Assembly: GCA_964616985.1 (NCBI GenBank)
Contig: CAZTVF010000005.1
Span: 6,771-70,770, forward strand
Source of the DNA: an uncultured Planctomycetaceae bacterium
GTDB taxonomy: Bacteria; Planctomycetota; Phycisphaerae; SM23-33
Direction: 5' to 3'
DNA length: 64,000 bases
The position numbers and the translations under genes are program-made. Under the pieces are notes generated by a model, which was not told where the DNA came from, did not search any database, and saw nothing but the letters and a program-made list of their open reading frames with translations. Positions 856 to 62,389 of this stretch are shown one piece after another; position 1 is the stretch's first letter; each line of letters opens with the position of its first letter.

Positions 856-1065
856 GCAAAAGCTCCTTTAAGAGCCCGTCGAGGGGCTCTCGCTTTGCGG
901 TGGTTTGTTCCGCCACCGCGCCGGTGCCAGACCATCCTAGTGACTGCCCCTGCGGGCGTCAAGTACTTGACAGGCAGCGAAGTTTCGCATAACACAGTTG
1001 CCGTCCTTTGTTTATTCCCACAGCCGATGCCCCCGCGGGGGCTCGTTCTTTTTGAAGAGGCTCCA

Positions 1066-5754: not shown

Positions 5755-5799
5755 TCCCAGGGACGACATCATTCGTTGCGTTAAGGAAGACGCCAGGAA

Positions 5800-12767: not shown

Positions 12768-12952
12768 TCGAGGCCGCCGGCGGCGGTCCCGGGGCGGCCT
12801 GCCGTCAACATAGCCGGCGCGTTGGCACCCGACGCCTGGCTATGCGTCGAACTCATGGGCGAACCCACCCCCGGGCGTCGCGTCGCGAGGGTCAATTGCT
12901 TTTGCCGTCGCCCTATGATAATGTCAACGCACCGAGGCCCACTGGGCCGGGA

Positions 12953-33359: not shown

Positions 33360-34769
33360 CTACGCCTTCACCGGCGGGCGGGTGAAGGGGCGGCGGGGCA
33401 GGGAGGTCGCCGTCTGGTATCGCCCGGGCGTGATGTGCTCTTCACCGATCACGCCGCCAGCGGCGAGCAGGTGCTGCTGCAGCATCGCGACGGGAAGCTG
33501 GCGGGGCGTGACGCCCTGGCGGATGGAAAGAGCCGCCGCGGCGCCGGCGGCCTCGCCCGTGCCCGCGCACTGGGCCATCACCCGCGTGGAGCCCAGGGCG
33601 ACGTGCGTGACGCTGATGCAGCGCCCGGCCACGAGGATGTTCTCGATCTTCCGCGGGACCAGCACGCGGTAGGGGATGTGGTAGCGGAAGCCCGTTCGCG
33701 GCCGCCACGTCGTGCCGTCCATGCCGGGCCCGTCGATGCGGTGGATGTCGATGAAGAACGAGCCGTAGCAGATGTTGTCGTCGAAACGGCACTCCTTCAT
33801 GATGTCCTGCTCGGTCAGGACGTACTCGCCCATGATCCGCCGCGACTCGCGCAGGCCGATCGTGTTGGGCGTCGAGACAAGGTAGCACTCCTCCATGCCG
33901 GCGACGTACTTGCGGAAGACGTCGATGCAGTGGAAGGCCTGGCGTCGGGCCTCGATGGTCGCGCGCGTCAGGTCCTCGGCCTTGGTCGTGTCGATGCCGT
34001 TGACGTGCGTGAAGTTGATGCCCACGAAGTGCGGCTGCGACGAATTCCACCAGAAGCCCATGATGCAGTGCTGAAAGGGCTCCATGTCGCCGTTCTGCTG
34101 GGCCTTCTCCCACACGTGGTTCATGCCGTAGCTCTGCTTGCCGTCGGGCCCGACGCGCCACGCCTCGACCTTCGCCCAATCGACGCCGCCGATGGTGAAC
34201 ATCAGCGTGACGGGCTGGCACTTGTGGTCGCCGGGGCGGCCGACTTCAAACTCGCAGCCGGCCGAGGCGGCGAGGTCGCCGTCGCCGGTGCAGTCGACGA
34301 GGCGCTTGGCGAAGACGGCCTGGCGGCCGGTCTTGTTCTGGATGACCGCCCCGACGGCGGCGCCGTCGCGGACGATCGCGCCGCACAGGAAGGTGTGGTA
34401 GAGGATCTCAACTTTCGACTCGAGCATCATCCGCTCGAGGAGGAACTTGAGCCCCTCGACGTCGAAGAACGCGCCGCCGGGGTAGCGGTCGCCGAAGCCC
34501 TCGTCGCAGACGCGGTCGACGATCTCAGCGGCGATGCCGCCGACGATGCGGTCCTGGTCGCCCCAGCTGGAGTAGATGGCCATGTAGCCGTGCCCGCCGG
34601 CCCCGGCCACGCCGCCGAGGCAGTTGAACTGCTCGACCAGCAGCGTGCGCTGCCCCAGCCTGGCCGCCGCCAGCGCCGCAGCCACGCCCGCCGGCCCGCC
34701 GCCGGCCACCACAACGTCATACTCGCCCTTGACGGGCAGTTCCCTGGCCTCTTCGAAATACCGCTGCAT
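33360..34769 (-). CDS. FAD-dependent oxidoreductase (FAD_oxidored / glucose-inhibited-division-like Rossmann family)
   Basis: It has the dinucleotide-binding motif YDVVVAGGGPAGVAAALAAARLG and a C-terminal GTGEAAGAAAAL motif. The start was set at MQRYFEE. Confidence 0.65.
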   Translation of the reverse strand: MQRYFEEARELPVKGEYDVVVAGGGPAGVAAALAAARLGQRTLLVEQFNCLGGVAGAGGHGYMAIYSSWGDQDRIVGGIAAEIVDRVCDEGFGDRYPGGAFFDVEGLKFLLERMMLESKVEILYHTFLCGAIVRDGAAVGAVIQNKTGRQAVFAKRLVDCTGDGDLAASAGCEFEVGRPGDHKCQPVTLMFTIGGVDWAKVEAWRVGPDGKQSYGMNHVWEKAQQNGDMEPFQHCIMGFWWNSSQPHFVGINFTHVNGIDTTKAEDLTRATIEARRQAFHCIDVFRKYVAGMEECYLVSTPNTIGLRESRRIMGEYVLTEQDIMKECRFDDNICYGSFFIDIHRIDGPGMDGTTWRPRTGFRYHIPYRVLVPRKIENILVAGRCISVTHVALGSTRVMAQCAGTGEAAGAAAALSIRQGVTPRQLPVAMLQQHLLAAGGVIGEEHITPGRYQTATSLPRRPFTRPPVKA

Positions 34770-34771
34770 GC

Positions 34772-36070
34772 TCACTCCTTGCACTTGAGGAAATCAGCCG
34801 CCATCTTGCCGGTGAGGGACTTTCCCGGGGTCCTGGCGGCGAGATCCTCGAGAAATTTAGCCATATCGGGCTTCAGTACGCCTTTGTCGCTGAAGAAGCC
34901 GGGGCCGCCCTTCTGGGCGAAGGCGCCGGCGAAGACGCCCAGTGTCGCCACTGCCGCCGAGGCCTTGGGTTCCTTCTTCGCCGCGGCCAGGGCGTCGGCG
35001 ACCTCCTTGGCCTTGGGATGGCCGTTGAGCTGCCGCGTGAAGATGGGCCCGTAGTACGCGCTGAGCGACGGGTCATGCTGGGCAAGCTCCTTCGTCAGCT
35101 CGACGACCTTGTCGACCCGGGCCTCGATGACCTTCTGCAGAGCGACGGCCTTTTCCTTCACATCGGCGGGGAGCTTCTCATCGGCGACGACTTTAGTGAT
35201 AGCGGCGCTGGCCTTGCCCAGTTCCAGAGCGTTGGCTTGGGCAACGATGGGCTTGAGCTCCTTCTGCGTGTAGTCCGGCGCGTAGAGGAAGGCGCAGAAG
35301 GCCAGGTCGCTGCGGCGAAAGACCCACGCGGAGGCATCGATGTCTTCGCCGGAGATGGAATGTCCCTTGCCTTTCTGGATGTGCAGGTAGATATCCGGGT
35401 TCGTGGCGCCCTTGGCGGCGCGGCCGAAAAGCTCCTGCGCTCGCTGCGGCTGGGAGGCCCCCAGCGTAGGCCGGCCGGCGTTCCACTCCTCGGTGCCCAA
35501 GGCGATCAGCCAGCTCAGCCGCGGGCAGGCGCCGGAGACGGACGTCCAGAGGTTGGAGCTGTACGGGGCCGAGTGGTTGAACTGGAAGCCGGGGGCGTCG
35601 CCCTTGCCGTACTTGTCCAGGAACAGGCCATGGATGAGCCCGCCGCCGGAGAAGGAACTGATCACGCCGCGGCCGGGGATGATCTTGTAGTCCGCCTGCA
35701 CCTGGGCGATCGCTTCGAGGGCAACCTTGAGCTTGCCGTCGGAGTCTTTGGCGTTATCCCCGTCGAGGTACGACATCTTGATGCCGATGAGATTGAACTT
35801 GTCGAGGAACTGGCCCGGCCCGTAGCCGCTAGCGGCCTCGGCGTTGCCCTTGCCCTGGCCGTGGAAGAAGATGTAGATGCCGGCCGGGTTGTCGGCGCTG
35901 TACGTCTTGGGGACGTGGACCCAGTACTGGTAGTCGGGGTTGGCGGTCGTGAACTTGAACGAGCCCGTCTTGCCCGCGTTTTCCGACGGTTTGGGCCCGC
36001 CCAGCAAGGGGGAGGCGGTGAGGCACAGGATGGCCAGGAGCGTGACAAGGAACGCGGGGGGCAAACGCAT
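34772..36070 (-). CDS. secreted alpha/beta-hydrolase (esterase-like)
   Basis: It has a signal peptide (MRLPPAFLVTLLAILCLTASPLLG), GIYIFFHGQGKG and a SFSGGG nucleophile-elbow-like motif. The assignment is tentative. Confidence 0.45.
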   Translation of the reverse strand: MRLPPAFLVTLLAILCLTASPLLGGPKPSENAGKTGSFKFTTANPDYQYWVHVPKTYSADNPAGIYIFFHGQGKGNAEAASGYGPGQFLDKFNLIGIKMSYLDGDNAKDSDGKLKVALEAIAQVQADYKIIPGRGVISSFSGGGLIHGLFLDKYGKGDAPGFQFNHSAPYSSNLWTSVSGACPRLSWLIALGTEEWNAGRPTLGASQPQRAQELFGRAAKGATNPDIYLHIQKGKGHSISGEDIDASAWVFRRSDLAFCAFLYAPDYTQKELKPIVAQANALELGKASAAITKVVADEKLPADVKEKAVALQKVIEARVDKVVELTKELAQHDPSLSAYYGPIFTRQLNGHPKAKEVADALAAAKKEPKASAAVATLGVFAGAFAQKGGPGFFSDKGVLKPDMAKFLEDLAARTPGKSLTGKMAADFLKCKE

Positions 36071-36096
36071 TGGTTTCTCCGGTGATGGCGTCGCAG

Positions 36097-45341: not shown

Positions 45342-45414
45342 GCGCCGCTAGCTCAGTTGGTAGAGCAGGTGACTCTTAATCACCGGGTCGTAGGTTCGAC
45401 TCCTACGCGGCGCA
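45342..45414 (+). tRNA. tRNA-Lys (anticodon CTT)
   Basis: The manual fold gives acceptor GCGCCGC/GCGGCGC, a D-arm GCTCAGTTGGTAGAGC, an anticodon stem GGTGA/TCACC with loop CTCTTAA (U33, anticodon CUU, A37), a T-arm GTAGG-TTCGACT-CCTAC, and discriminator A. The CCA is not encoded. Confidence 0.8.
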
Positions 45415-45417
45415 CGT

Positions 45418-48090: not shown

Positions 48091-50109
48091 CTACTTCGCC
48101 GGCGCCCATCCCGGCAGCGAGACATTTCCACGTCGAATGGGGGCGTAGACCCGCGAGGCCGCGGTTTTCATCGGCCCCGGCGTCAGGATGTTGACCACCC
48201 GGCCGGATTGGAGCACGATCTCGTCGCGGGGGTCGCCGGTGAGGTCCTGCACCATCGCCATCGCGCCGTTGGCACGGTTAGGGCAGGGCACGTCGAACTT
48301 CACCAGCTTGCGTCCGGTTGCATCGTAGAGTCCCAGGGCATCCTGCGAGCCCATCAGCAGGATATGCTCCCACCCGTCGCCGGTCCAGTTGACGGGGCAA
48401 TGCATCGCGCCGAGGTAGTCGCACTGCAGCGTGCCCAGGCGTTTGCCGGTGGCCGAGAAGACGGCCATGTAGCCGTACGTGCCCCAGCGGCTGTTGGTGA
48501 GCACCTGCAGGCCGTCGTGATCCTCGAGCAGCCGGCCCACCTGGCACCACTGCACGTGCCCCAGGCGGTGGATGGCGAGCGTGCGGCCGGTGCGGGCGTC
48601 GACGACGGCGTTGCCGTTGCAGCCGAGCTGCAGGTGCGCGACGGGGCCGATCTCGCTGTCGGCGTCGAAGAACCCCATGGCGACGGAATCCACGTGGTCG
48701 GGCCGGTGATAGTGCCCGGGCTGGTAGAGAAGGTCCGCATCCTCCCACTGCCAGATCACCTTGCCGTCGTGCGACAGCAGCGTGGGCCCGGCGAGGACCT
48801 CCTCGCGGCCGTCGCCGTTGACGTCGCAGAAGGCGAAGCTTCGCGAGTGCCCGAACGGCGGCAGGATCCGCTTCTCCCACAGGATGTCCAGTTTGCGCGA
48901 GACGGCCCAGCAGCGAAAGCCCGCGCCGCCGCTGGTGGGCAGTTCCTCGCGGAGGAAGAACTCGCCGGCCAGGGGCGCCCCCGAGAGGTTGGCGACGCAC
49001 TCGCCCACCGGCACGACGATGGCCTTGGGGTCATCCGACGCGGGCGTCTTGAGGCGGCGGACGATGCGGCCGGTGGGGCCATCGACCAGCACGTGCTCGT
49101 CGCCCAGGCGGCCGAAGATGTCGTTGAGGCCGTCGGCGCGCGGCGCGGCGATACAGGAGGTCAATTCGCCGGCGAGCCGCCAGATCTCGCGGCCGCGAAG
49201 GTCCATGCACAGGGTCGCGCCCGCGCCGCCGGCCTCGCTGCCGGAGCCGATCAACTGGGCCTCGTCGCGCCGGGCCAGGCGGGCGGCGAAGGTGACGGCG
49301 GCGATGGGCTCGGCCAGGGTGAAAGTCGAATGCACGACGGGCTCGGGCATGCGCTGCGCCATGGCCGCGCGGCGGTCTTCCTCCCGGGCCTGCTGGGCAG
49401 CGAAACGTCGCACCGCGGGGCCGTCGGCGCGGATCACGAGCTGGTCGACGTACGCCGCGGCGTTGGTCCGCACGCCCGCCAGGCCGCGTTCGAAGCGGTC
49501 GTCGGTGACGGCAAAGACGCGCCGGCCGTCGAGGCTGGCCTCGAGGCGGTCGCCTCGGCAGGAGAGTTCGAGGCAGTACCAGGCGCCCATTTCGGGCTTG
49601 ATGCAGGTGGAGGCGAGTTCGAGCCACTCGTCGTCGCTGCGGCGGATGAGGGCGAGCTTGCCGTCGGCCTGGATGCACAGGAAGTAGTACTGGCGGACGT
49701 TGAGCATGCGGGCGACGATGCCGACGGCGGCGATGCGGTTGTCGACGCGGTCCTCCAGCGGTCGCGTGCGGTCCGACAGCAGCGCGACCCGCGCGCGGAC
49801 GATGCAGTCGGGCGGCACGGGTTGACGAGTCACCAGCGAGCGGTCGAATCGCGTGCCGTCCCAGCCCGCGCGGGCGTCAGCCTCCAGGTCGAAGTGCAGC
49901 ACGGGGCGGTTGCTGTGCCCGTGCAGCACGGGGCCCTGCGGAAGGTGCGCCACCTTCATGAGGCTGTAGTGCTTCCAGTATGCCGGCGGCACGGTGGGGG
50001 CAACCCATTCCGTGAAGCAGGCGTCAACGTCGGCGCTGGGCTCCATCGGGTTCAGCACCCAGCCCTGGGGGCAGTTGTCCAGGCGAAGCTCGAGGTGACA
50101 CTGATTCAT
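48091..50109 (-). CDS. LamG-like (concanavalin-type) domain plus FG-GAP/VCBS repeat protein
   Basis: FG-GAP-like repeats are present (FCDVNGDGREEV, FFDADSEIG, LTGDPRDEIVL). The N-terminal jelly-roll-like segment reads YYFLCIQADGKLALIRR...LSCRGDRLEASLDGRRVF. The start is uncertain (50109 or 50130). Confidence 0.45.
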   Translation of the reverse strand: MNQCHLELRLDNCPQGWVLNPMEPSADVDACFTEWVAPTVPPAYWKHYSLMKVAHLPQGPVLHGHSNRPVLHFDLEADARAGWDGTRFDRSLVTRQPVPPDCIVRARVALLSDRTRPLEDRVDNRIAAVGIVARMLNVRQYYFLCIQADGKLALIRRSDDEWLELASTCIKPEMGAWYCLELSCRGDRLEASLDGRRVFAVTDDRFERGLAGVRTNAAAYVDQLVIRADGPAVRRFAAQQAREEDRRAAMAQRMPEPVVHSTFTLAEPIAAVTFAARLARRDEAQLIGSGSEAGGAGATLCMDLRGREIWRLAGELTSCIAAPRADGLNDIFGRLGDEHVLVDGPTGRIVRRLKTPASDDPKAIVVPVGECVANLSGAPLAGEFFLREELPTSGGAGFRCWAVSRKLDILWEKRILPPFGHSRSFAFCDVNGDGREEVLAGPTLLSHDGKVIWQWEDADLLYQPGHYHRPDHVDSVAMGFFDADSEIGPVAHLQLGCNGNAVVDARTGRTLAIHRLGHVQWCQVGRLLEDHDGLQVLTNSRWGTYGYMAVFSATGKRLGTLQCDYLGAMHCPVNWTGDGWEHILLMGSQDALGLYDATGRKLVKFDVPCPNRANGAMAMVQDLTGDPRDEIVLQSGRVVNILTPGPMKTAASRVYAPIRRGNVSLPGWAPAK

Positions 50110-50310
50110 GCCAAACCTTTCCTGAGTCATGCGACTACGGGCTCCCGCGGGAGCTCGGATCGCCGCAGTGGCGGCTGCACGGCCTATAGTTCTGAAAGGC
50201 AAGAGGGCCGGCGTCGAATCTATGATGCTCGCGGGCGTGGGTCAACGCATTTTGATTTGCCGCCACGCGCGCCGCGGACGATAATCTCGCACCAATCGAA
50301 AGGATCACCC

Positions 50311-51528: not shown

Positions 51529-53100
51529 TCAGTCGGCCCTGGTGGCGAGGTCCTCAGGGGCGACGCGGGGCGAGGTGGCGGCGCACTCGGGTTTGTCGCT
51601 TGTGGCGTTAGGGGGCGTGTCGGCGCCCTCGGGGTAGGGATAGAAGCCGAACTCTCGAAGAAGCTCCAGCTTGGGCAGAACGTTATTCGCCAGGTCCACG
51701 TGGAAGAAGCCCGGGAAGATGTCGGGGTTGTCCATGATCAGCTGGAAATACTCGCGGTGGCGGGGCGGGATCTCAATCTCGCCGCCGCGCGAGACCTCGT
51801 GCCCGGTGAACACGAACTCCGGCAGCAGCCACGGGCAGAACTCCAACTTCACGCGGCCGGCCCAGTCGCGGTAGACCTGCGTCTGCGGCAGCAGGCTCAG
51901 CAGGCTGGGCAGGATGCGGGCGCCCATCATGCGGAAGGCGATCATCTGGAACAGCGACTGGCGGAAATCGTCGATCGTCTCAAATGGGAAACCCCACACG
52001 AAGAACGTGTCCACCCGCGGGAACAGCGGCACGGCCTTGGGCACGATCTCGAGGCTCTGGGCCGACGTGAAGCCCTTGCGGATCTCGGCCAGCACCTTGT
52101 CGCTGCCCGACTCGATGCCGAACCGCATCTCCATGCAGCCGCACTGCGACATCGCCCGCATCATCTCTTCGTCCATGAGATTCACGCGGCCGAACGCCTT
52201 CCACCGCAGGGGCAGGTTCGTGGCGGCGAGTTCGCGGCAGAACTCCATCACGTGCCGTTTGCCCGAGACGAAGAATTCATCCTGGAAGAGGAACAGGTCC
52301 ACGCCCGCCTGCTCGTGCAGATGTTTCATCTCGGCGACGATGTTGGCGGGGGAGCGGGAGTGGCTTTCGAGATTCCACACCGGGGCGACCGAGCAGAAGG
52401 TGCAGGGGTACGGGCAACCGCGGCTGGTCATCATGCCGTAGCCGGCGTATCGCTTGATGTCGATCTTGTGCCACGCCGGGAAGCCGATGGCGTCGAGGTC
52501 GGTGATCCGCGGGCGGTCGGGATTGTGAATGACCTCGCCGCCGGCGGTACGGTAGGAAATGCCGCGAACGCCGCCGAGGTCGCCGCCGGCCTGGATCGTC
52601 CGCAGCAGATCGATGCCGGTAAGCTCGCCCTCGCCGCGGCAGATGACGTCGATCCAGGGGAATCGCTGGAGGATCTGGGCTTCGACGGCCTTGGAGCCCA
52701 CGCCGCCCAGCACGAGGATGCGATCGGGGTAGCGCTGGCGGAGGGCCTTGGCGGCCAGGATGGTGAACGGCAGCAGATTGGCCATGCACGACAGGCCGAT
52801 CACGCGTGCCGGATTCGACAGGAAAGAGAGGAAGACCTGCATGTCGAACGGTTCGTCGCTGTCTACGACCTGGTAATCGCGGAAGTCGACCTCCAGCCCG
52901 GCGTCCTCCATCGCCCTGGTCAGGTACAGGCAGCCCAGCGGCACGTGTAGCTCCCGCTCGATCTCCTGGCCGTAACGCATGAACAACATATTGAGGTTGA
53001 TTAACGTGATATCGGCCACTCGATGAACTCCTGGCGTCCCGGCGGGGGCTAATCCGCGCGACGCCACCGATTCTACCGCGTTGCGGTGCTGAAAGACCAC
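51529..53100 (-). CDS. B12-binding domain radical SAM protein (class B radical SAM, likely methylase)
   Basis: It has an N-terminal cobalamin-binding-like Rossmann segment (ITLINLNMLF...VIGLSCMANLL...ILVLGG) and the radical SAM core MMTSRGCPYPCTFCSV (CxxxCxxC). An alternative GTG start lies near 53020. Confidence 0.7.
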   Translation of the reverse strand: MVFQHRNAVESVASRGLAPAGTPGVHRVADITLINLNMLFMRYGQEIERELHVPLGCLYLTRAMEDAGLEVDFRDYQVVDSDEPFDMQVFLSFLSNPARVIGLSCMANLLPFTILAAKALRQRYPDRILVLGGVGSKAVEAQILQRFPWIDVICRGEGELTGIDLLRTIQAGGDLGGVRGISYRTAGGEVIHNPDRPRITDLDAIGFPAWHKIDIKRYAGYGMMTSRGCPYPCTFCSVAPVWNLESHSRSPANIVAEMKHLHEQAGVDLFLFQDEFFVSGKRHVMEFCRELAATNLPLRWKAFGRVNLMDEEMMRAMSQCGCMEMRFGIESGSDKVLAEIRKGFTSAQSLEIVPKAVPLFPRVDTFFVWGFPFETIDDFRQSLFQMIAFRMMGARILPSLLSLLPQTQVYRDWAGRVKLEFCPWLLPEFVFTGHEVSRGGEIEIPPRHREYFQLIMDNPDIFPGFFHVDLANNVLPKLELLREFGFYPYPEGADTPPNATSDKPECAATSPRVAPEDLATRAD

Positions 53101-53273: not shown

Positions 53274-54218
53274 ATGATCGATGAAGTTCCCCGCGGCGTC
53301 TGGCCGGTCATGCTGACGCCATTTCGGGATGACGGAAGCGTGGACTGGCCCGGCGTGGATGCCCTCACCGACTGGTACATCGCCAGCGGCGTCGCGGGGC
53401 TGTTCGCCGTCTGCCTGTCCAGCGAGATGTACCACCTGTCGCCGCAGGAGCGAGTGCAACTGGCGGCCCGTGTCGTCCAGCGATCGGCCGGTCGCGTGCC
53501 GGTCGTTGCCGCGGGCGCCTTTGGGGACTCGCTGGAGCAACAGGCCGCGGCGGCCCGGAGGATCGCCGATACCGGCGTGGCGGCCGTGGTGCTCACTGCC
53601 AACCAGCTGGCGGCCGAAACGGGATCGGATGCCGCCTGGCAGGAGAACGCCGAGGCGATGCTCGATGCCTGTCCATTGATCCCGCTGGGGCTGTACGAGT
53701 GCCCCGTGCCCTATCATCGCACGCTGAGCGCGGAATTGACCGGCTGGGCCGCACAAACCGGGCGGTTCCTGTTCTTGAAGGACACCTGCTGCCGGCGCGA
53801 CCAGCTCGAGGCAAAACTGAAGCGGCTGGACGGTTCGCCGCTGCGTTCGTACAACGCTCACTGCCCGACGTTGCTGCATTCGCTCTGCACGGGCGGGGCC
53901 GGCTACAGCGGCATCGCGGCCAACTTCTACCCCGAGCTGTTCGTCCGCCTGTGCGCCCAGTTCGCGGATCGCCCAGCCGAGGCCAGCCGCCTGCAGCGAT
54001 TCCTTACGCTGGCCGACCTGACGATCCGCATGCGGTACCCGGCGTCAGCCAAGCGGTATCTTGGCCTGCTGGGCCTGCCGATCGGCTCGTTCTGCCGCCT
54101 GCCGATGCCCGCGCCCCGCGCCGATGATGATGAGGAAATGATGCTGGCGAACCTGCGGCAAGCCGTTGACGAGATGAAGGACGAGTTGGGGTGTCGCACG
54201 AAGGCCGCGCAGCGATAG
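53274..54218 (+). CDS. dihydrodipicolinate synthase / N-acetylneuraminate lyase family (class I aldolase) protein
   Basis: WPVMLTPFRDDGSVDW...GVAGLFAVCLSSEMYHLSPQER follows the DHDPS/NAL N-terminal pattern. It lies next to sialidase-like genes. Confidence 0.6.
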   Translation: MIDEVPRGVWPVMLTPFRDDGSVDWPGVDALTDWYIASGVAGLFAVCLSSEMYHLSPQERVQLAARVVQRSAGRVPVVAAGAFGDSLEQQAAAARRIADTGVAAVVLTANQLAAETGSDAAWQENAEAMLDACPLIPLGLYECPVPYHRTLSAELTGWAAQTGRFLFLKDTCCRRDQLEAKLKRLDGSPLRSYNAHCPTLLHSLCTGGAGYSGIAANFYPELFVRLCAQFADRPAEASRLQRFLTLADLTIRMRYPASAKRYLGLLGLPIGSFCRLPMPAPRADDDEEMMLANLRQAVDEMKDELGCRTKAAQR

Positions 54219-54230
54219 CGAGGAGAGACC

Positions 54231-55313
54231 ATGGGAGCCCCCGGGAACGTTCAGCACGTGAAGGTGTATTCGGAGCAGGGCAAGTTTGCCGGCTGGCCGG
54301 CCAACAGCGGCCTGTGGGCCTGGGGCAACGAACTGCTGGTCGGCTTCGCGTTGGCCGATCACGACGAAAGCCAGAAAGGCCACAAATACGCCTACCAGAC
54401 GGCGCGTCAGCAGTTTGCCCGCAGCCTCGACGGCGGCCAGACATGGACGCTCGAGGACGCATTCGGATGCGGGATCACGGCCCTGTCGCAGGACCACGTC
54501 GCCGTCGCCAACGCCGCCGCGCCGGGGGATTGCCCCGGCAACTGCGACTTCACCCACCCGGATTTCGCGATGACCTTTCGCCGGGCCAACGATGTAGACG
54601 GCCGATCGCATTTCTATGTGACGAGCGACCGTGGCCGGGCCTGGAAGGGGCCGTACGCATTTCCAAACCTGGGCAATCCGGGCATGCTCGCACGCACCGA
54701 CTATTTTGTTGAAGGCCCCCGCGCGATGCTGGCGATGTTGACGGCGTCCAAGACGAACCGCCAGGAAGGGCGCGTCGGCTGCGCCCGCACCTGCGACGGC
54801 GGCCGCTCGTGGCAGTGGGTTTCGTGGGTGGATGAGGAGCCCAAAGGTTACGCGATCATGCCGGCGACGGTGAGGCTGGCGACGGGGCGGCTGGTGTGCG
54901 TCGTGCGCCGCCGGGGCGATAATCGCTGCTGGCTGGCGGGCTACATCTCCGAAGACAACGCCGCGACCTGGCGGCGCATCGCCGACCCCGCTCCCCAGAC
55001 CGGGCACGGCGGCAGCCCCGCTGCGCTGGTCGTCTTGGCCGACGGCCGGCTGTGCCTCGCCTACGCCGTGCGGGGCACGAGCCCCCAGGACGCATCCCGC
55101 ATCTGCGTGCGGTTCAGTGCTGACGGCGGCGAAGGCTGGGGCGAGGAAATCGTCATTCGCGGCAACGATGGCGCGAACTGGGACATCGGCTATCCGCGGA
55201 TCGCACAACGCCCCGACGGCAAGGTGGTGGTATTGTATTACTACAATCACGGCTGGATCGAATCGCCCTCCTACCGCTACATCGCGGCGACACTGTTCGA
55301 TCCGCAAGCCTGA
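54231..55313 (+). CDS. BNR/Asp-box repeat exo-alpha-sialidase-like protein
   Basis: It has four Asp-box motifs (SLDGGQTW, TSDRGRAW, TCDGGRSW, SADGGEGW) and the RBS GAGGAGAG. Confidence 0.6.
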   Translation: MGAPGNVQHVKVYSEQGKFAGWPANSGLWAWGNELLVGFALADHDESQKGHKYAYQTARQQFARSLDGGQTWTLEDAFGCGITALSQDHVAVANAAAPGDCPGNCDFTHPDFAMTFRRANDVDGRSHFYVTSDRGRAWKGPYAFPNLGNPGMLARTDYFVEGPRAMLAMLTASKTNRQEGRVGCARTCDGGRSWQWVSWVDEEPKGYAIMPATVRLATGRLVCVVRRRGDNRCWLAGYISEDNAATWRRIADPAPQTGHGGSPAALVVLADGRLCLAYAVRGTSPQDASRICVRFSADGGEGWGEEIVIRGNDGANWDIGYPRIAQRPDGKVVVLYYYNHGWIESPSYRYIAATLFDPQA

Positions 55314-55360
55314 TCGCTGGTGGACCTGATTGCAGGAACGCCGTAGCCGGAGAACCCGAC

Positions 55361-57733
55361 ATGGAGAAGATTGTCTACTCACGTGAGGTGCCCGTCCGCT
55401 GGAATGTGGACGTGGCCGTCGTCGGGGGCGGCATGGCCGGCGTGTGCGCCGCCTGCGCCGCGGCCGATAGCGGCGCGACGGTGGCGCTGGTCGAACGCTT
55501 CGCCTCCACCGGGGGCATGATGACCAACGGCGGTGTCAACAACTTCAGCGGCGAGACGGGCGGGCAGGGCCGCGTTTTCGACGAGATCATCGCGCATCTC
55601 GGCGCCTTCGGCGCCATCGCGCCGTACAAGCCGTGGGTCCCTTTTGGCCCCGAGCGGGGCTTCGACCACGAGATCCTCAAGAGCGTGCTCCAGGAAGTCC
55701 TGCTGAGGCGGGGCGTGATGCTGCTGCTGCATAGCCGGTTTGTGGATGTGGCCGGGGCGGCCGACGGGCGGATCGACAGCGTTGTGCTGCGGGGCAATTC
55801 CGGCCCCGAGGCGTTGCGGGCGAAGCAGTTCATCGATTGCACCGGCGAGGGTGAGCTCGCCCACATGGCCGGCTGCGAGACGATGAAGGGGCGGCCGGGG
55901 GACGAGCTGCAGCTGCCGATGAGCCTGATGTATTTCGTGCGCGAGGTCGATGACGCGGACCGCGCCGCCCAAGTGCCCGAGGGCTGGCAGGAGCAGATCG
56001 TGGTCGAGGCCGACCTGCCGATGACCAGCATCTGGGCGAACGGCCCGCGCAGCAAGGCGATCAAGATCAAGGTGATCGGCCACGATTCGACCGACACCGA
56101 GAGCATCAGCCGGGCCGAGATCGCCGCCCGGCGTCGGATGCTGCAGGTGCTCGATTTCCACCAGCGGCGTTCGGGCAAGCCGTGGCGGCTGGCGTATGCC
56201 TCGCCCATCATCGGCATCCGCGAGGGGCGGCGGGTCGTCGGCGAGTACGTCCTCACCGAAGCCGATGTCCGCTCCGGGCGGGCCTTCGACGACGGCGTGG
56301 CCGTGGGGAGCTACTACCTCGACGCCCACGAGCCGACGACCGACAAACGTGTCAGCACGATCGCCGACCGGGAGCAGGCGCGGGTGCCCCCTTACCACAT
56401 CCCGCTGCGCAGCCTGGTCGCGCGGGACGCCCGCAACCTCTGGATGGCCGGGCGGAACATGTCGGCCGACTACTTCGCGCTCAGCTCGGCCCGCGTCTCG
56501 CCCACGTGTGCGATGATGGGCCAGGCCGCCGGCGTGGCGGCGGCCATCGCCGCACAGCGTGGTCTTGCGGCCCGCAACGTGCCGGCGGGGGAGGTGCGGC
56601 GGGTGCTGCTCGACCGCGACGCTAATCTGAACACCACTGGGCGCCCATCGTCGCCGCCACGGATCGCCAATCCCGGATATGACGCGAGCACCGCCCGCCC
56701 GCTGCCGGTCGAGCGGACGTGGCTGTATCAGCCGGCGACTGAATGGACCTATTCCCACCACCCGCACCTGGCCCACTTCAATGGCCGCTATGTGGCCGTG
56801 TGGTCCAATGGGCGGCAGGATGAGGACGGGCCCGGCCAGCGCGTGCTTTGCGCCACTTCGACCGACTTCCGCCAATGGACGACGCCGACGCCGCTGCTGG
56901 ATACGCAGCCGGGCAAGCATACGGAACTGGTGCTGACCGCGGCGGGGCTCCATCGGCACGCGGGCAACCTCGTCGCGTACATCGCCTGCTACGAGTGGTG
57001 CCCCGACGCCCTGGTCGACGGCCGGCGGCAGAAGGGCATCCGGAAGCACTTCGACAAGACGCTGCTGACGATGACGACGGCCGACGGCGTGCACTGGGCG
57101 GGGCCCGCGGATCTGCAGATGGGCATCGTGCCCAACCATGGCCCGCAGCGCACGGCGTCGGGCAGGCTCATCATCAGTTGTGATAGCACGTTCCCATTCA
57201 CGGACGACCAGGCGGGGCTGGGCGGGTGGCAGATGAGCGGCATCCGCCCGTGCGACATGCCGCCGGGCGTTCACCTGTGCGAAGGGTCGTTCTACCAGAC
57301 CGACGACGGCGTGCTGCACATGCTGCTCCGCAGCGACACCGCCCGCTTGTGGCTGACCGAGAGCCGCGACGACGGCGTGACGTGGTCGGCGCCGGTGCCC
57401 ACGCAATTCACCGACAACGCCACCAAGTTCCACTTCGGTCGCCTGCCGGATGGGCGATTCTACTACGTCGGTTGTCCGGATCCCGAGCCGCCATGGCAAC
57501 GTTGTCCGCTGGTGCTGTCGCTGTCGCGTGACGGCGTCCAGTTCAGCCGTCACTTCATTCTCGCCGGCGCCGACACGCCCTACACCCGCCGCCGCGACGG
57601 CGTGTGCAAGGGCGGCGACTACGGCTACCCCCACACGCTGATCCACGGCGATGCGCTGCACGTCATCGTCTCGCGACGCAAGGAAGCCGTCGAAGTGTTG
57701 AGCGTGCCGCTGGCGGCCCTGGGCGCTGAGTGA
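55361..57733 (+). CDS. fusion protein: N-terminal FAD-dependent oxidoreductase domain plus C-terminal BNR/sialidase-like domain
   Basis: The N-terminus VDVAVVGGGMAGVCAACAAADSGATVALVERF...GQAAGVAAAIAAQ is homologous to the stand-alone FAD protein at 33360-34769. The C-terminus has Asp-boxes (TTADGVHW, SRDDGVTW, SLSRDGVQF). It is one uninterrupted 790-aa ORF. Confidence 0.55.
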   Translation: MEKIVYSREVPVRWNVDVAVVGGGMAGVCAACAAADSGATVALVERFASTGGMMTNGGVNNFSGETGGQGRVFDEIIAHLGAFGAIAPYKPWVPFGPERGFDHEILKSVLQEVLLRRGVMLLLHSRFVDVAGAADGRIDSVVLRGNSGPEALRAKQFIDCTGEGELAHMAGCETMKGRPGDELQLPMSLMYFVREVDDADRAAQVPEGWQEQIVVEADLPMTSIWANGPRSKAIKIKVIGHDSTDTESISRAEIAARRRMLQVLDFHQRRSGKPWRLAYASPIIGIREGRRVVGEYVLTEADVRSGRAFDDGVAVGSYYLDAHEPTTDKRVSTIADREQARVPPYHIPLRSLVARDARNLWMAGRNMSADYFALSSARVSPTCAMMGQAAGVAAAIAAQRGLAARNVPAGEVRRVLLDRDANLNTTGRPSSPPRIANPGYDASTARPLPVERTWLYQPATEWTYSHHPHLAHFNGRYVAVWSNGRQDEDGPGQRVLCATSTDFRQWTTPTPLLDTQPGKHTELVLTAAGLHRHAGNLVAYIACYEWCPDALVDGRRQKGIRKHFDKTLLTMTTADGVHWAGPADLQMGIVPNHGPQRTASGRLIISCDSTFPFTDDQAGLGGWQMSGIRPCDMPPGVHLCEGSFYQTDDGVLHMLLRSDTARLWLTESRDDGVTWSAPVPTQFTDNATKFHFGRLPDGRFYYVGCPDPEPPWQRCPLVLSLSRDGVQFSRHFILAGADTPYTRRRDGVCKGGDYGYPHTLIHGDALHVIVSRRKEAVEVLSVPLAALGAE

Positions 57734-58067: not shown

Positions 58068-59024
58068 ATGATGAACGGCGCTCACGTATTCAAGGTCCTT
58101 TTGGTCGAGGACAACCCGGGGGACGCCCGCCTGATTGAGATGGCTCTCAGAACGCCGGCGGCTGCATTCCGTCTGATTCACGTCGAGACCCTGGCCGCAG
58201 CCTTGAAGGAGATCCGCCAGTCGCCATATGACTTGGTCCTGCTGGACCTGCATCTTCCCGACAGCGATGGCAGCGAGACCTACGAGAATATTCTGGCCGG
58301 TACGCATCAGGTGCCGATCGTCGTCCTGACCAGCCAGGAGGACGATGTGCTCGCGATGAAAGCAATCGCCGCCGGGGTGCAGGACTACCTGGTCAAAGGC
58401 TCAATCAGCGAATTCGCGATGAGGCGATGTCTACGCTACGCGCGGGAACGTAAGCGACTGGAATTGGAGCTCCAGAAGGCGAACGAGACCCTTGAGCAGC
58501 GCGTGAAGGAGCGGACGGCCGAACTGGAGAAATCGGTCACGCTGCTGGGCCAGGAGATGACCGAGCACACCCGCGCCGACGAAGAGGCCGAGGAGGCCCG
58601 GAAGCGGTTCTACGAGATTCTCGACGAACTGCCCATGGTGTTCTGGATCGCCAGCGCCGACTCCATGCAGACCATCCATTGCAGCCGCCACTATGAAGAA
58701 GTCACCGGCCGCTCCTCCGACTCGTCCGGCAACCGCGGCTGGGCCGAAGCGATCCATCCCGACGACCGACCGGCGGTAGTGGCCGAGTTCGACAATTGGC
58801 TTCACCAGGCCCAGAGGGGCCATATGCCTCCCCTGGAGCAGAGCTTCCGAGTTCAGGGCGTCAACGGCCGCACGTTGCCGTTCCGCTGCCGCACGTTCGG
58901 CATCTGGGAGGCCAACGGGTCGCTCCGGTACATCTGCGGGATCGGCGAAGAGCGACCCGTCGAGGAAGCAGCCGGGGGCACGGCGTCCCGCTGGCAGAAA
59001 CTGAGACACGTTCTTTCGAAGTAG
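58068..59024 (+). CDS. response regulator with REC receiver domain plus PAS domain
   Basis: The REC domain reads KVLLVEDNPGDARLIEMAL...DLVLLDLHLPDSDG...PIVVLTSQEDDVLAMKAIAAGVQDYLVKG. A coiled-coil linker and a PAS-like C-terminus follow (MVFWIASADSMQTIHCSRHYEEVTG). Confidence 0.7.
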   Translation: MMNGAHVFKVLLVEDNPGDARLIEMALRTPAAAFRLIHVETLAAALKEIRQSPYDLVLLDLHLPDSDGSETYENILAGTHQVPIVVLTSQEDDVLAMKAIAAGVQDYLVKGSISEFAMRRCLRYARERKRLELELQKANETLEQRVKERTAELEKSVTLLGQEMTEHTRADEEAEEARKRFYEILDELPMVFWIASADSMQTIHCSRHYEEVTGRSSDSSGNRGWAEAIHPDDRPAVVAEFDNWLHQAQRGHMPPLEQSFRVQGVNGRTLPFRCRTFGIWEANGSLRYICGIGEERPVEEAAGGTASRWQKLRHVLSK

Positions 59025-60079: not shown

Positions 60080-62389
60080 GTGAAGTGGATCGTGGATCAA
60101 ACAATGCAAAACAAGATCGTCTCCTTCATCTGGGGCATCGCCGACGATGTGCTGCGCGACCTGTTCAAACGCGGTAAGTATCCGGACGTGATCCTGCCGA
60201 TGTGCGTCATCCGACGCATGGACGCGGTGCTCGAACCGACCAAACAAGAGGTGCTCGGCACCAAGAAGATGCTGGACGAGAGCGGCATTACCGAGCAGCG
60301 CGCGGCCCTCTGCGAGGCGGCGGGACAGGCCTTTTACAACACCTCGCGCTTCACCCTGCGCGACCTGAAGTCGCGCGGCAGCCAGCAGCAACTCCTTGCC
60401 GACTTCGAGGACTATCTCAACGGCTTCTCGCCCAACGTCCAGGACATCATCGAAAACTTCAAATTCCGCAACCAGCTATCCACACTGTCGAAGGCCGATG
60501 CACTGGGTACGCTGATCAGCAAGTTTCTCGACCCCGATATTGACCTCTCCCCGGCCGGCATCGACAACCACTCGATGGGCACGGTCTTTGAGGAGCTGGT
60601 CCGCAAGTTCAACGAGGAGAACAACGAAGAGGCGGGCGAGCACTGGACGCCGCGCGATGCCGTGCGGCTGATGGCGAACCTCGTCTTCCTGCCAATCGAG
60701 GCGAAGCTCAAATCCGGCACCTACCTGCTCTACGACTGCGCGTGCGGCACCGGCGGCATGCTGACCGTGGCGGAGGAGACGCTCACGGCCATCGGCGCGA
60801 AGCGTAAGCGGCAGATCAAAAGCCTCCTCTACGGCCAGGAGATCAACCCCGAGACCTATGCTGTCTGCAAGGCGGACATGCTGCTCAAAGGCGAAGGCGA
60901 GAGCGCCGACCACATCGTCGGCGGCGCGGAATGGTCCACGCTCCAGCACGACGCCTTCCCGGCGCAGGAGTTCGACTTCATGCTCGCCAACCCGCCCTAT
61001 GGCAAGAGCTGGAAGAAGGACCTCGAAGCGATGGGTGGCAAGGATGGCATGCGCGACCCGCGGTTCAAGGTGATGCTCGCCGACGAGGAGTTGTCGCTCG
61101 TCACCCGCTCCAGCGACGGGCAGATGCTCTTTCTGGCCAACATGGCGTCGAAAATGAACGGCAGGTCGGCACTGGGCAGCCGCATCGCCGAGGTCCACAA
61201 CGGCAGCTCGCTCTTCACCGGCGACGCGGGCCAGGGCGAGAGCAACATCCGCCGCTGGCTCATTGAGAACGACTGGCTGGAGGCCATCGTCGCCCTGCCG
61301 CTCAACCTCTTCTACAACACCGGCATCGCCACCTACATCTGGGTGCTGTCGAACAGGAAGCCCGAGCATCGCAAGGGCCAGGTCCAGCTTATCGATGCGA
61401 CCCAGTGGTTCAAGCCGCTTCGCAAGAACCTCGGCAAGAAAAACTGCGAGCTCTCGCCCGAAGATATCGAACGTATCAGCCGCACCTTCCTTGAGTTTAA
61501 GGAAACGCCCGAGTCGAAGAGATTCGTCAACGCCGCCTTCGGGTACTGGAAGGTCACGGTCGAGCGCCCGCTGCGCCTGCACAGCCAGCTCTCGCTCAAG
61601 GCCATCGAGACGCTGCGGTTCGCCTCCGGCGACGAAGACGTGCGCGCCGCACTCTATGAGGAGTTCGGCGACGACCTCTTCACGAAGTTCGCCAAGATCT
61701 CTTCCTCGCTGGAAAAACGCCTCGCTGACTGGGGCGACGATGAGGACGACGATGAAGAGGGCGGCAGCGCCAAGAAGGGCATGCCCGAGAAGAAGAAAAA
61801 GAAACTGCTCGACCCCAGGACCTGGGAGCGAGACGGGCGCCTCGTCGAGACGGCCACGGCACTTCGCACGGCGCTGGGCGATAAGCTCTTTAAGGATCAT
61901 AACATCTTCCGCGATCGCGTGGATGCCGCGATCGAGAAGGTCGACCTCAAGCTCCCCGCCGGCGACCTGAAGCAGATACTCAAGGCCGTGAGCTGGCGAG
62001 TCGAGACCGCGCCGCCGGTGATCGCCAAGGTCCACAGGCCGGGCAAGGCGACGGTGGATCCGCTGCACGGCCGCTACGCCTCGCCCGTCGGCGACCCGAA
62101 ACTCGTGCTGGAATACGAACCCGACTCCGATCTGCGCGACACCGAGCAGGTGCCGCTCCTGGAAGAAGGCGGCATCGAGGCCTTCTTCCGCCGCGAGGTG
62201 CTGCCGTACACGCCCGACGCGTGGATCAAGGAGGACGCCACGAAGATCGGCTACGAGGTGAGCTTCACCCGCCATTTCTACAAGCCGCCGCCGCTGCGCA
62301 CGCTGGAGGAGATTAGCGCCGACATCCTCGCCATCGAGAAAGAGGCCGGGGGGCTGCTGGATGGGCTATTGAAGGGGGTCGCGAGGTGA
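60080..62389 (+). CDS. hsdM: type I restriction-modification system DNA methyltransferase subunit HsdM
   Basis: It has the HsdM N-terminal domain (IVSFIWGIADDVLRDLFKRGKYPDVILPM), the SAM-binding motif LLYDCACGTGGML, and the catalytic FDFMLANPPYG (NPPY). It runs 769 aa with an acidic C-terminal insert. The start is ambiguous (GTG 60080 or 60092, ATG 60104). Confidence 0.85.
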   Translation: MKWIVDQTMQNKIVSFIWGIADDVLRDLFKRGKYPDVILPMCVIRRMDAVLEPTKQEVLGTKKMLDESGITEQRAALCEAAGQAFYNTSRFTLRDLKSRGSQQQLLADFEDYLNGFSPNVQDIIENFKFRNQLSTLSKADALGTLISKFLDPDIDLSPAGIDNHSMGTVFEELVRKFNEENNEEAGEHWTPRDAVRLMANLVFLPIEAKLKSGTYLLYDCACGTGGMLTVAEETLTAIGAKRKRQIKSLLYGQEINPETYAVCKADMLLKGEGESADHIVGGAEWSTLQHDAFPAQEFDFMLANPPYGKSWKKDLEAMGGKDGMRDPRFKVMLADEELSLVTRSSDGQMLFLANMASKMNGRSALGSRIAEVHNGSSLFTGDAGQGESNIRRWLIENDWLEAIVALPLNLFYNTGIATYIWVLSNRKPEHRKGQVQLIDATQWFKPLRKNLGKKNCELSPEDIERISRTFLEFKETPESKRFVNAAFGYWKVTVERPLRLHSQLSLKAIETLRFASGDEDVRAALYEEFGDDLFTKFAKISSSLEKRLADWGDDEDDDEEGGSAKKGMPEKKKKKLLDPRTWERDGRLVETATALRTALGDKLFKDHNIFRDRVDAAIEKVDLKLPAGDLKQILKAVSWRVETAPPVIAKVHRPGKATVDPLHGRYASPVGDPKLVLEYEPDSDLRDTEQVPLLEEGGIEAFFRREVLPYTPDAWIKEDATKIGYEVSFTRHFYKPPPLRTLEEISADILAIEKEAGGLLDGLLKGVAR

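Follow-up and report, generated by a model that had tools for sequence, protein, structure and literature searches.

A PF12831 flavoprotein joined end to end to a GH143-like sialidase-fold propeller in a putative acidic-sugar operon of an uncultured planctomycete

The subject of this report is a three-gene cluster in a stretch of 64,000 nucleotides (the window) from an uncultured Planctomycetaceae bacterium (assembly GCA_964616985.1, contig CAZTVF010000005.1). The last gene of the cluster encodes a protein of 790 residues, in which a flavoprotein of the FAD_oxidored family (PF12831) appears to be joined to a β-propeller with a sialidase fold. The propeller looks catalytic and, as judged from its conserved residues, resembles glycoside hydrolase family GH143 rather than the classical sialidases of family GH33. 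The two superfamilies have been covalently joined at least twice independently, and their unfused members are neighbors in unrelated genomes. These associations, together with a shared aldolase, narrow the substrate of the flavoenzyme to the sugar of the GH143-like hydrolase.

In the glycan loci of Planctomycetota, Verrucomicrobiota, Lentisphaerota and related phyla, few enzyme families without annotation are as common as PF12831. The independent fusion and the operon context described below strengthen the inference that enzymes of this family act on the sugar of the propeller. They offer a testable lead to the function of an orphan family and turn an annotation gap into a defined experiment. 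The evidence for the whole reading is purely computational.

The following names are used. FADn and BNR2c are the flavin half and the propeller half of the fused protein, BNR1 is the stand-alone propeller of the same cluster, and FADpar is a paralogue of FADn encoded elsewhere in the window. L-numbers designate loci of relatives and P-numbers homologous database proteins. The coordinates of all features are given in Table 1.

The fused protein and its junction

The initial annotation of the window had described three co-directional genes, the last of them a single open reading frame (ORF) for 790 residues. ORF coordinates and Pfam searches bear this out: the three ORFs are located within positions 53274-57733 of the plus strand, run in one direction and are spaced by 12 and 47 nt. 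The N-terminal half of the fused protein matches FAD_oxidored over residues 17-416 (E = 3.5e-93; 313.6 bits against a cut-off of 27), and this match spans the whole PF12831 model (positions 1-416 of 416). The C-terminal half matches BNR_2 (PF13088) over residues 476-768 (E = 3.5e-24). It also gives a borderline match of 27.5 bits, against a cut-off of 27, to PF24067 (Beta-prop_BT_1020, 'BT_1020-like N-terminal beta propeller') over residues 459-511. Taken together, the domain matches go well beyond chance. Structure prediction, which had been proposed for both domains, produced confident folds, with a predicted local distance difference test score (pLDDT) of 90.8 for FADn and of 93.3 for the AlphaFold model of BNR2c. 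The predicted template modeling score (pTM) of the latter is 0.92.

Alignment with unfused relatives shows that the two proteins are joined end to end with codon precision. The sequence upstream of the join, '...ANLNTTGRPSS', corresponds to the native C-terminal tail of stand-alone FAD proteins, which terminate in 'GRPTS' followed by two to four residues. The sequence downstream of it, 'IANPGYDASTARPLPVER', corresponds to the sequence with which stand-alone propellers natively begin (MxxxxI[TA]NxGY..A.RLPVER). The two native termini are bridged by three residues, PPR (nt 56654-56662). No remnant of a stop codon was found at the join, and within about 40 nt of it no frame contains an ATG, GTG or TTG that is able to start a separate propeller gene. 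A single insertion, deletion or substitution, be it natural or a sequencing error, therefore cannot recreate two genes. The G+C content at third codon positions (GC3) is 0.90 in one half and 0.88 in the other, and the composition is smooth over the join. In the N-domain model, the final nine residues (436-444) have a pLDDT below 50 and are disordered, which suggests that about 20 flexible residues, rich in Pro, Ser and Gly, tether the two domains to each other. None of the residues that are invariant among 62 FAD relatives or among 58 propeller relatives has been lost from the fused protein. As far as the nucleotide sequence can tell, the fusion is real.

The same fusion was not found elsewhere in a scan of GTDB genomes, and a metagenome scan with a junction-spanning peptide did not find the same junction on any independent contig. 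The latter scan gave four matches that seemingly span the join, and in none of the four is a FADn match located upstream of the propeller. In L113, the one of the four whose ORFs were read, the propeller is preceded by a secreted-type N-terminal extension; L086 has no FAD match apart from a gene of the paralogue type, which lies downstream.

Independent fusions of the two families

The nearest relatives of each half are unfused. In a word-index search with the whole protein, the best 120 homologues are all FAD-only proteins of about 440 residues with up to 79% identity. The best 120 homologues of the C-terminal half are all propeller-only proteins of about 375-385 residues with up to 71% identity, and the unfused 382-residue protein P0121 is 71% identical to BNR2c. 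An exhaustive HMMER search of 1.84 billion representatives gave 12,199 matches at E<=1e-3 (both halves counted) and no protein scoring as an orthologous fusion. The top score in this search, 471 bits, belongs to a FAD-only protein of 451 residues. These relationships suggest that the fusion in the window is a lineage-specific, separate event, most probably a recent join of two genes that were once separate. An adjacency of the type FAD-stop-start-propeller was considered as the direct precursor and rejected: in the loci of P0001, P0002 and P0005, what follows downstream is a PHP gene or unassigned genes.

A distinct family with the same domain order and the same two superfamilies does exist. 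Several long proteins that match both halves (P0256, P0262, P0290, P0320 and P0354) are FAD_oxidored::BNR_2 proteins according to Pfam. A search seeded with P0256 yields 950 proteins at E<=1e-30, and both domains are present in 119 of the 120 best matches. The members of this large fused family (about 725-845 residues; examples are P0256, P0290 and P0440) carry the labels 'FAD-dependent oxidoreductase' and 'predicted neuraminidase' only. Their FAD halves are 43-61% identical among themselves and 35-42% identical to FADn, with which they have in common the motifs LPMS, LPMT, KxK, GxREGRR, YxxDxH, YxIPxR, GR and SxR. Their propellers, in contrast, have strong PF13088 scores, are only about 25% identical to BNR2c and belong to a different BNR_2 subfamily. 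When the two propeller subfamilies are compared with hhalign (99.1% probability, E = 1.7e-18), the candidate catalytic His, two Arg and Tyr are in register. FAD_oxidored and BNR_2 have thus been covalently joined at least two times independently.

The FAD_oxidored::BNR_2 architecture is already abundant in databases, and the window reveals no new kind of protein. What the window adds is an independent second fusion and its compact operon context. The co-occurrence of the two domains, for which the initial annotation had proposed a database search, is found both in the separate fused family and among neighboring unfused orthologues.

Two side observations concern the flavin genes and their propeller partners. 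In L002, where the FAD half has its closest relative (78% identity), a propeller gene 75% identical to that of the window (910-1404; P0368, 151 residues) lies upstream of two FAD genes. It has an internal deletion, its first ~110 residues being followed directly by its last ~40, which suggests that the module is being reshuffled in this lineage. P0339 and P0370 are tandem FAD_oxidored::FAD_oxidored proteins of about 800 residues. Tandem pairs of a FADpar-type gene followed by a FADn-type gene are present in L001/L002, L018, L046 and L065, and the two subfamilies may work as a pair.

Gene neighborhoods in relatives

Unfused orthologues of FADn and BNR2c are found a few kb apart both in genomes (L016, L021, L022, L023, L028, L030, L035, L039 and L043) and in metagenomes (L093, L104, L107, L110 and L116). 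Loci other than the window with neighboring orthologues of both halves number at least 15, and many of the genomes belong to the Planctomycetes-Verrucomicrobia-Chlamydiae (PVC) group. In L040, L048 and L086, the gene immediately beside the BNR2c orthologue is one of the FADpar subfamily. Of the 23 loci that hold a FADn orthologue, 12 have a BNR2c or BNR1 gene in their retrieved flanks. In L021, a gene for a double propeller of 710 residues (classical BNR_2::BNR2c) begins within the FAD gene, with an overlap of 4 nt. The same operon also codes for a β-lactamase::BNR1 fusion, an FG-GAP protein and RhaA as well as for an MFS transporter. In L018, a Clostridiales metagenome-assembled genome (MAG), the genes run in one direction in the order BNR_2-FAD-FAD-sulfatase-DHDPS-BNR_2-BNR1, where DHDPS stands for the dihydrodipicolinate synthase family.

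The other two genes of the cluster follow the same pattern. Orthologues of the window aldolase (47-69% identity) adjoin BNR2c or FAD genes in L042, L011 and L018. Orthologues of BNR1 (38-51% identity) adjoin BNR2c or FAD orthologues in L055, L056, L018, L021, L043 and L066, the neighbor in L055 and L056 being BNR2c, and P0246 and P0253 are BNR1::BNR2c fusions. All four components of the operon are thus linked by pairwise fusion or adjacency in unrelated genomes. The functional link between the FAD enzyme and the propeller, which the initial annotation had derived from the fusion, is well supported by the independent fusions and by gene adjacency.

Around this core, the recurrent neighbors are sulfatases, GH29 fucosidases, SASA-type esterases, polysaccharide deacetylase and DUF4838 genes, as well as AraC regulators and ABC, SSF and MFS transporters. 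The loci of the closest propeller orthologues contain GH140-like apiosidase, GH141-like (GH141_M) and GH123-like genes and a sulfatase::BNR_2 fusion. The GH140-like apiosidase and GH141_M, which are families of the rhamnogalacturonan-II (RG-II) type, are present only in some related loci. This set of neighbors is the signature of complex, decorated, acidic glycans and not that of an operon for N-acetylneuraminic acid (Neu5Ac), and none of the annotated neighbors was seen to resemble nanE, nanK, nagA or nagB. Clustering of the neighbors, meant to narrow down the substrate, showed that, beyond the FAD, BNR and DHDPS genes, the neighborhoods are heterogeneous. The genes of the large fused family are often solitary or stand beside AraC, sulfatase or GH2 genes and have no constant partner.

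The propeller clade is highly modular. Besides the sulfatase::BNR_2 protein (745 residues, L005 4303-6540), it includes the β-lactamase::BNR1 (776 residues) and BNR_2::BNR2c (710 residues) proteins of L021, at 5036-7366 and 11260-13392, respectively. In a further group of proteins of about 650-680 residues (P0279, P0324, P0325, P0329, P0330, P0335, P0346 and P0374), a propeller of the BNR2c type is preceded by an N-terminal domain of about 320 residues. The latter domains are mutually related and have no Pfam match at E<=1e-5 and no match to the proteins of the window.

The propeller domain

A Foldseek comparison of the BNR2c model gives template modeling (TM) scores of 0.70-0.75 to GH33 sialidases (NanA and that of M. 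viridifaciens) and to fungal KDNase, at 11-16% sequence identity; the top match is the uncharacterised protein Dfer_1899. With these scores, one canonical Asp-box and several degenerate ones, the domain fits the GH33-type six-bladed fold. The strand pattern assigned by DSSP suggests five regular four-stranded blades and a reduced blade at domain residues 141-194. The initial annotation had described a second Asp-box sialidase domain in the fusion: the propeller is real, whereas its boxes are reduced to a single canonical one (SRDDGVTW, residue 668).

The best solved sequence relative of BNR2c is BT1020 (PDB 5mqr), which ranks first in both phmmer (E = 7.5e-10) and family profile (E = 1.2e-15) searches and is the founding member of GH143. 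It is followed by 8axi-type sialidases and then by NanB and NanC. The sialidase entries align with BNR2c at the Glu...Arg strand pair E641...R657. In the alignment with BT1020, R714 is opposite the Arg of 'FRWPL' and Y756 is opposite the Tyr of 'QYPRG'. The N-terminal domain of BT1020 is the founding GH143 hydrolase of 3-deoxy-D-lyxo-hept-2-ulosaric acid (Dha) in RG-II degradation, and GH143 is reported to retain the Tyr-Glu nucleophile pair of sialidases (PMC6811678).

The residues H22/H23, E44/D45, R50, E197, R213, R270, Y312 and K330/E331 (domain numbering) are invariant in 58 members of the BNR2c family; the full-length equivalents include H466/H467, E488/D489, E641, R657, R714 and Y756. 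D487/E488/D489 are invariant or near-invariant in the same set. The spacing of the putative catalytic residues is Glu-16-Arg-57-Arg-42-Tyr, which resembles the spacing in GH33. At the position of the Arg in the 'RIP' motif, BNR2c has SHHPHL, BT1020 has NHQPML and the large fused family has CHA[SP]TL. From its position and spacing, SHHPHL presumably is the counterpart of the (F/Y)RIP motif of GH33. The Arg triad of GH33 is then incomplete in BNR2c: the first Arg is replaced by a His, and the second and third (R657 and R714) are kept and invariant.

A check for the sialidase catalytic residues had been proposed together with the initial annotation, which allowed for the case that the domain lacks all of them and is just a scaffold. 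As regards the presence of these residues the outcome is largely positive, although the first Arg of the triad is missing. An invariant Glu, two Arg and a Tyr are present at sialidase-like spacing, so that the domain does not lack all of these residues. Judged from this alignment, BNR2c looks catalytic and is GH143-like rather than a member of GH33.

The flavin domain

FADn contains a single GxGxxG motif (GGGMAG) within a β-α-β start in the model, and the second strand ends in an acidic residue, E45, that does not vary among 62 sequences. No second dinucleotide-binding domain was found in FADn. The full-length match and the predicted dinucleotide fold with its acidic residue assign the domain to PF12831. 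The many conserved Arg, His and Asp residues of the family suggest that the substrate is acidic. Orthologues of FADn are present in Victivallis, Clostridiales and Brocadiia MAGs. These lineages are anaerobes, which argues against an obligate oxidase or monooxygenase.

The top structural neighbors of FADn include urocanate reductase and fumarate reductase, both of which are reductases of α,β-unsaturated carboxylates. The TM scores, however, do not exceed 0.47, and the 172-294 of 444 residues that can be aligned represent the generic FAD-binding core only. For the geranylgeranyl, urocanate and fumarate reductases (GR2-type flavoproteins), 246-294 of the 444 residues align at 11-19% identity. The part that binds the substrate is unrelated to these enzymes, so that no function can be transferred to FADn. 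No solved structure describes the function of any PF12831 member.

The aldolase and the sialic-acid label

The first gene of the cluster encodes a protein that matches PF00701 (E = 8e-22) over positions 3-280 of the 289 in the model. In alignments with three solved DHDPS enzymes, K169 falls on the Schiff-base Lys ('flflKdt' versus 'ivgvKda') and Y141 on the catalytic Tyr. The full-length match to a TIM barrel together with the Lys and the Tyr makes the protein a member of the DHDPS/NanA superfamily. Its scores against models of individual functions are far lower than the cut-offs: 18.7 bits versus 382 (TIGR00683) and 27.8 versus 281 (NF003164) for NanA, 62.7 versus 206 (TIGR00674) for DapA and 35.6 versus 374 for KdgD. 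Furthermore, the Arg of the DapA motif 'YNVPGR' is replaced by Pro, and the 'GTTGE' motif reads CLSSE. The candidate assignments as DapA or NanA were rejected on account of these scores and of the lost DapA Arg. Weak matches to 5-dehydro-4-deoxyglucarate dehydratase would fit a keto-deoxy substrate, either aldaric or ulosonic, although they prove nothing. The aldolase belongs to a subfamily that travels with BNR2c-type propellers.

The initial annotation had regarded the cluster as one for sialic-acid catabolism with a NanA-type lyase. This label is not supported. The best characterised relative of the propeller is the GH143 hydrolase BT1020, the first Arg of the triad is a His, the aldolase falls far short of the NanA models, and the recurrent neighbors are sulfatases, fucosidases, esterases and propellers and not genes of the nanE/nanK type.

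A model for the action of the operon

Judged by eye, the N-termini of the three operon proteins do not resemble signal peptides, and the module is for this reason taken as cytoplasmic. The three-gene operon would finish, in the cytoplasm, the breakdown of imported oligosaccharides that are capped by a 2-keto-3-deoxy (ulosonic) sugar of the type of ketodeoxyoctonic acid (Kdo) or Dha. FADn, tethered to the propeller by about 20 flexible residues, would act on the same sugar residue as the propeller. It would first rework or unmask the terminal residue by an O2-independent oxidation, and the propeller would then cleave this residue off. BNR2c would be a GH143-like retaining exo-glycosidase with Tyr756 and Glu641 as the nucleophile pair. 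Arg657, Arg714 and His466 would hold the anomeric carboxylate, and Asp/Glu487-489 would supply the acid/base. BNR1 might be an additional exo-hydrolase that differs in its specificity for linkage or sugar. The DHDPS-family enzyme would finally split or dehydrate the released keto-deoxy acid via a Schiff base on Lys169, yielding pyruvate and a shorter sugar. We infer the class of the substrate, the cytoplasmic location, the order of the steps and the flavin chemistry from the gene structure and domains, the clean junction, the independent recurrence of the fusion, the synteny and the conserved putative catalytic residues, all of which are observed.

For the overall model, a Kdo/Dha-type ulosonic-acid operon in which the flavin domain acts on the same sugar as the propeller, the reasons for belief and for doubt are about balanced. 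The flavin-first order within this model is more tentative and is put forward with some doubt. Three considerations point to it. The other N-terminal partners of such propellers, namely a sulfatase, a β-lactamase-fold esterase and a probable FGE-like protein, are enzymes that treat decorations before hydrolysis. The FAD::propeller pair often occurs without an aldolase, which suggests that the pair is the core unit. Lastly, the canonical route from hydrolase to lyase needs no redox step in between. If the flavin step is indeed a prerequisite for hydrolysis, it would represent a new enzymatic logic for the degradation of recalcitrant pectic and algal glycans. In a still wider view, PF12831 might be a missing redox class of carbohydrate enzymes, which together with GH143-like propellers carries out a two-step, flavin-assisted removal of resistant acidic sugars of the ulosonic type, which may bear substituents. 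Oxygen-independent unmasking or activation would then be directly coupled to hydrolysis on complex plant, algal or bacterial glycans and be widespread in the PVC superphylum and in other glycan specialists. We regard this generalization as unlikely.

Several points weigh against the proposed model. The continuity of the ORF rests on one assembly. FADn is without an informative structural relative, and the reaction predicted for it is for that reason a guess. The literature searches returned nothing on PF12831 or on the FAD::sialidase-fold architecture, and no biochemical data for any PF12831 member or for the propeller subfamily of the window. The strand that bears the putative catalytic Glu lies outside the alignment with BT1020, and in the aligned large fused family the Glu appears five residues off. 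Because the neighborhoods are heterogeneous, the sugar could be other than Kdo or Dha. In addition, the large fused family is often without a nearby aldolase, so that the link to the aldolase is not universal.

Alternative explanations

The order of the two steps might be the reverse, with the flavin domain acting after hydrolysis and the fusion serving for substrate channelling. FADn would then be either a NanOx-like isomerase or hydratase for the anhydro or 2,3-ene product of a propeller of the intramolecular-trans-glycosidase type, or a dehydrogenase that acts on the keto-deoxy acid after its release or on a fragment made from it by the aldolase. The evidence from fusions and adjacency fits this order as it fits the model above, and the preference for an acidic substrate and the presence of urocanate and fumarate reductases among the structural neighbors of FADn are in line with it. 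There is also a precedent in Ruminococcus gnavus, where the product of an intramolecular trans-sialidase, 2,7-anhydro-Neu5Ac, is processed by the oxidoreductase NanOx. On the other hand, the structural likeness is confined to the generic FAD core, the sulfatase and esterase-fold partners of related propellers act before glycoside cleavage, and many FAD::propeller genes have no aldolase nearby. That the flavin oxidises the released sugar seems less likely to us than that it acts on the still intact glycoside, and we consider the reversed order rather improbable. The gap is wider for a classical Neu5Ac cluster, in which two GH33-type sialidases and a NanA lyase would be combined with a FAD enzyme that oxidises free sialic acid or its product. 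The sialidase fold, the matches to GH33 and GH181 sequences around E641...R657 and the adjacent gene of the DHDPS/NanA superfamily speak for such a cluster. So do the SASA-type esterase and SSF transporter genes of some related loci and the labels 'exo-alpha-sialidase' or 'predicted neuraminidase' that relatives sometimes bear. The closest characterised relative is nonetheless a Dha-hydrolase, with GH33 identity being low, and the His in SHHPHL, invariant in the family, takes the place of the RIP-motif Arg. The NanA models fail and the genes for downstream Neu5Ac metabolism are missing among the annotated neighbors. Moreover, oxidation of the released sugar would be needless for cleavage by the lyase and might even block it. 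A Neu5Ac cluster is therefore quite unlikely.

It is likewise hard to believe that the propeller lacks catalytic activity and serves as a binding or scaffold module feeding glycan substrates to the flavoenzyme, or that the fusion is a neutral or degenerating accident without function. The restriction of the exact fusion to the lineage of the window, the absent first Arg of the triad, the single canonical Asp-box that is left and the internally deleted propeller gene in the locus of the closest relative (L002) would all agree with this. In a decaying protein, however, one would not look for the retention of all residues that are invariant in the 58 propellers and 62 FAD proteins, among them the candidate Tyr, Glu and Arg, of which the Tyr and Arg are common to BT1020. 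The high and similar GC3 of the two halves argues in the same direction, and so does the fact that the same two families were fused a second time, independently, in a form that persists in hundreds of clusters. Least probable is an assembly or sequencing artefact that joins two adjacent genes into a single ORF. The one point in its favor is that the same junction is found on no independent contig. It is opposed by the in-frame, codon-precise join between native termini, which has neither a stop remnant nor a nearby start codon, and by the smooth composition across it.

Comparison with known systems

BT1020 is the closest characterised counterpart of the propeller. Both have the N-terminal motif 'W-T-Y-x-H-x-P-x-L', with a His in place of the GH33 Arg, as well as the Arg of 'R-x-P-L' and the Tyr of 'Y-P'. 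The alignment is limited to the N-terminal motif and the last blades, and the overall similarity is low. As is predicted for the fused protein of the window, BT1020 is bifunctional, and its two active sites work in sequence on a single side chain (PMC6811678). The partner domain in BT1020 is a glycosidase, however, whereas it is a flavoprotein in the window. BT1020 is described as a five-bladed propeller (PMC6811678), whereas the BNR2c model, from its strand pattern, seems to have a reduced sixth blade in addition to five regular ones. BT1020 comes from a polysaccharide utilization locus of Bacteroides, whereas the proteins of the window look cytoplasmic and are encoded in a genome of the PVC type.

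The nan operons with GH33 sialidases and NanA, and the KDNases, resemble the window in the six-bladed fold, in the Asp-boxes and in the pattern Glu...Arg (16 residues)/Arg/Tyr. In the nan operons, too, a hydrolase is paired with a Schiff-base enzyme of the DHDPS superfamily. The differences are the low identity, the change of the RIP Arg to His and the failure of the NanA models. No genes for processing ManNAc were seen in the window, where, unlike in nan operons, a flavoenzyme is part of the unit. By analogy, the cluster may be viewed as an 'exo-ulosonidase plus Schiff-base lyase' module of the nan type or the RG-II type.

The second-best sequence matches of BNR2c are the entries 8axi, 8axs, 8axt, 8hls and 9eob, which are labeled 'sialidase domain-containing protein' or 'exo-alpha-sialidase' and probably are Akkermansia-type GH181 sialidases. 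They align at the strand-loop-strand of E641 and R657 and at the Asp-box that follows. This alignment comprises only about 60-70 residues, and the proteins, 576-601 residues in length, have extra modules and no flavin domain.

The flavoenzyme partner is without a characterised counterpart, and the trans-sialidase and NanOx of R. gnavus are the nearest conceptual precedent. As is proposed for the window, an oxidoreductase is devoted to the sugar of a sialidase-fold enzyme and a lyase follows. Unlike FADn, NanOx is an NAD-dependent enzyme of the Gfo/Idh/MocA type, is unfused and is located in a compartment other than that of the sialidase.

Operon layout and other genes of the window

Sequences of the GGAG Shine-Dalgarno type precede the second and third start codons of the cluster, and the arrangement of the three genes is operon-like. 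A scan for promoters and terminators gave a single weak promoter-like site, which overlaps the first start codon and is not above chance. BNR1, the second gene product, matches PF13088 with E = 7.6e-15. Its Asp-boxes, at residues 65, 131, 187 and 296, number exactly four, as stated in the initial annotation, and its best PDB sequence match is 5hx0 (Dfer_1899), a protein of uncharacterised function.

Table 1. Positions of the operon genes, of the domains of the fused protein and of the FADpar paralogue in the window
Feature	Position	Strand	Remarks
First gene, 314 aa, class I aldolase or dehydratase of the DHDPS/NanA superfamily	53274..54218	+	ATG start; alternative TTG at 53262; PF00701
BNR1, stand-alone sialidase-fold propeller, 360 aa	54231..55313	+	PF13088; four canonical Asp-boxes
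FAD_oxidored::GH143-like propeller fusion, one uninterrupted ORF, 790 aa	55361..57733	+	both domains by Pfam
FADn domain, aa 1-424, PF12831 flavoprotein (predicted)	55361..56632	+	single GGGMAG dinucleotide motif, aa 22-27
Linker/junction, aa 425-447, TTGRPSSPPRIANPGYDASTARP	56633..56701	+	join 'PPR' at nt 56654-56662
BNR2c domain, aa 448-790, sialidase-fold β-propeller, BT1020/GH143-like clade	56702..57730	+	pLDDT 93.3
Putative catalytic residues of BNR2c: H466, D487/E488/D489, E641, R657, R714, Y756			family alignment
FADpar, stand-alone FAD_oxidored paralogue, 474 aa, different subfamily	33360..34784	-	PF12831, E = 1.7e-116

The stand-alone FAD copy that the initial annotation placed at 33360-34769 is a real paralogue, 36-38% identical to the fused FAD half; its gene, however, is on the minus strand and extends to 34784. 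The plus-strand translation of 33360-34769 was rejected as the FAD copy, because it contains no Pfam domain. FADpar is seemingly the last gene of a minus-strand operon (33360-38946). The preceding genes encode a protein of 432 residues without a Pfam match (34772-36070), which overlaps FADpar by 13 nt, and a protein of 949 residues with FGE-sulfatase (PF03781) and CBM9 domains (36097-38946). ORFs with FGE domains recur in related loci. In L037 (1366-4539) and L043 (108-2672) a BNR1 match lies inside a long ORF, and these two ORFs are probably FGE::BNR1 fusions.

Downstream of the three-gene operon are a response-regulator/PAS protein, directly adjacent (58068-59024, plus strand), and, farther away, the HsdM methylase of a type I restriction-modification system (60080-62389, plus strand). 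A tRNA-Lys(CTT) gene is located at 45342-45415 on the plus strand. None of these three genes has an apparent tie to the fusion.

A protein of 703 residues that resembles FG-GAP proteins and the C-terminal part of rhamnogalacturonan lyases of family PL11 is encoded about 3 kb upstream of the operon (48091-50202, minus strand). In L021, an FG-GAP protein of 845 residues is encoded directly upstream of the FAD gene, and the FG-GAP protein may be another recurrent partner. A URO-D-like gene (PF01208; 41803-42804, minus strand) has a 52% identical homologue in L066, and in L006 as well as at the locus of P0122 a BNR2c orthologue has a URO-D gene next to it. A gene for a B12-binding radical S-adenosylmethionine (SAM) protein (51529-53100, minus strand) abuts the operon on the opposite strand. 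Together, the URO-D and B12 radical SAM genes hint at corrinoid-dependent methyl-group chemistry, possibly O-demethylation of sugars, in these loci.

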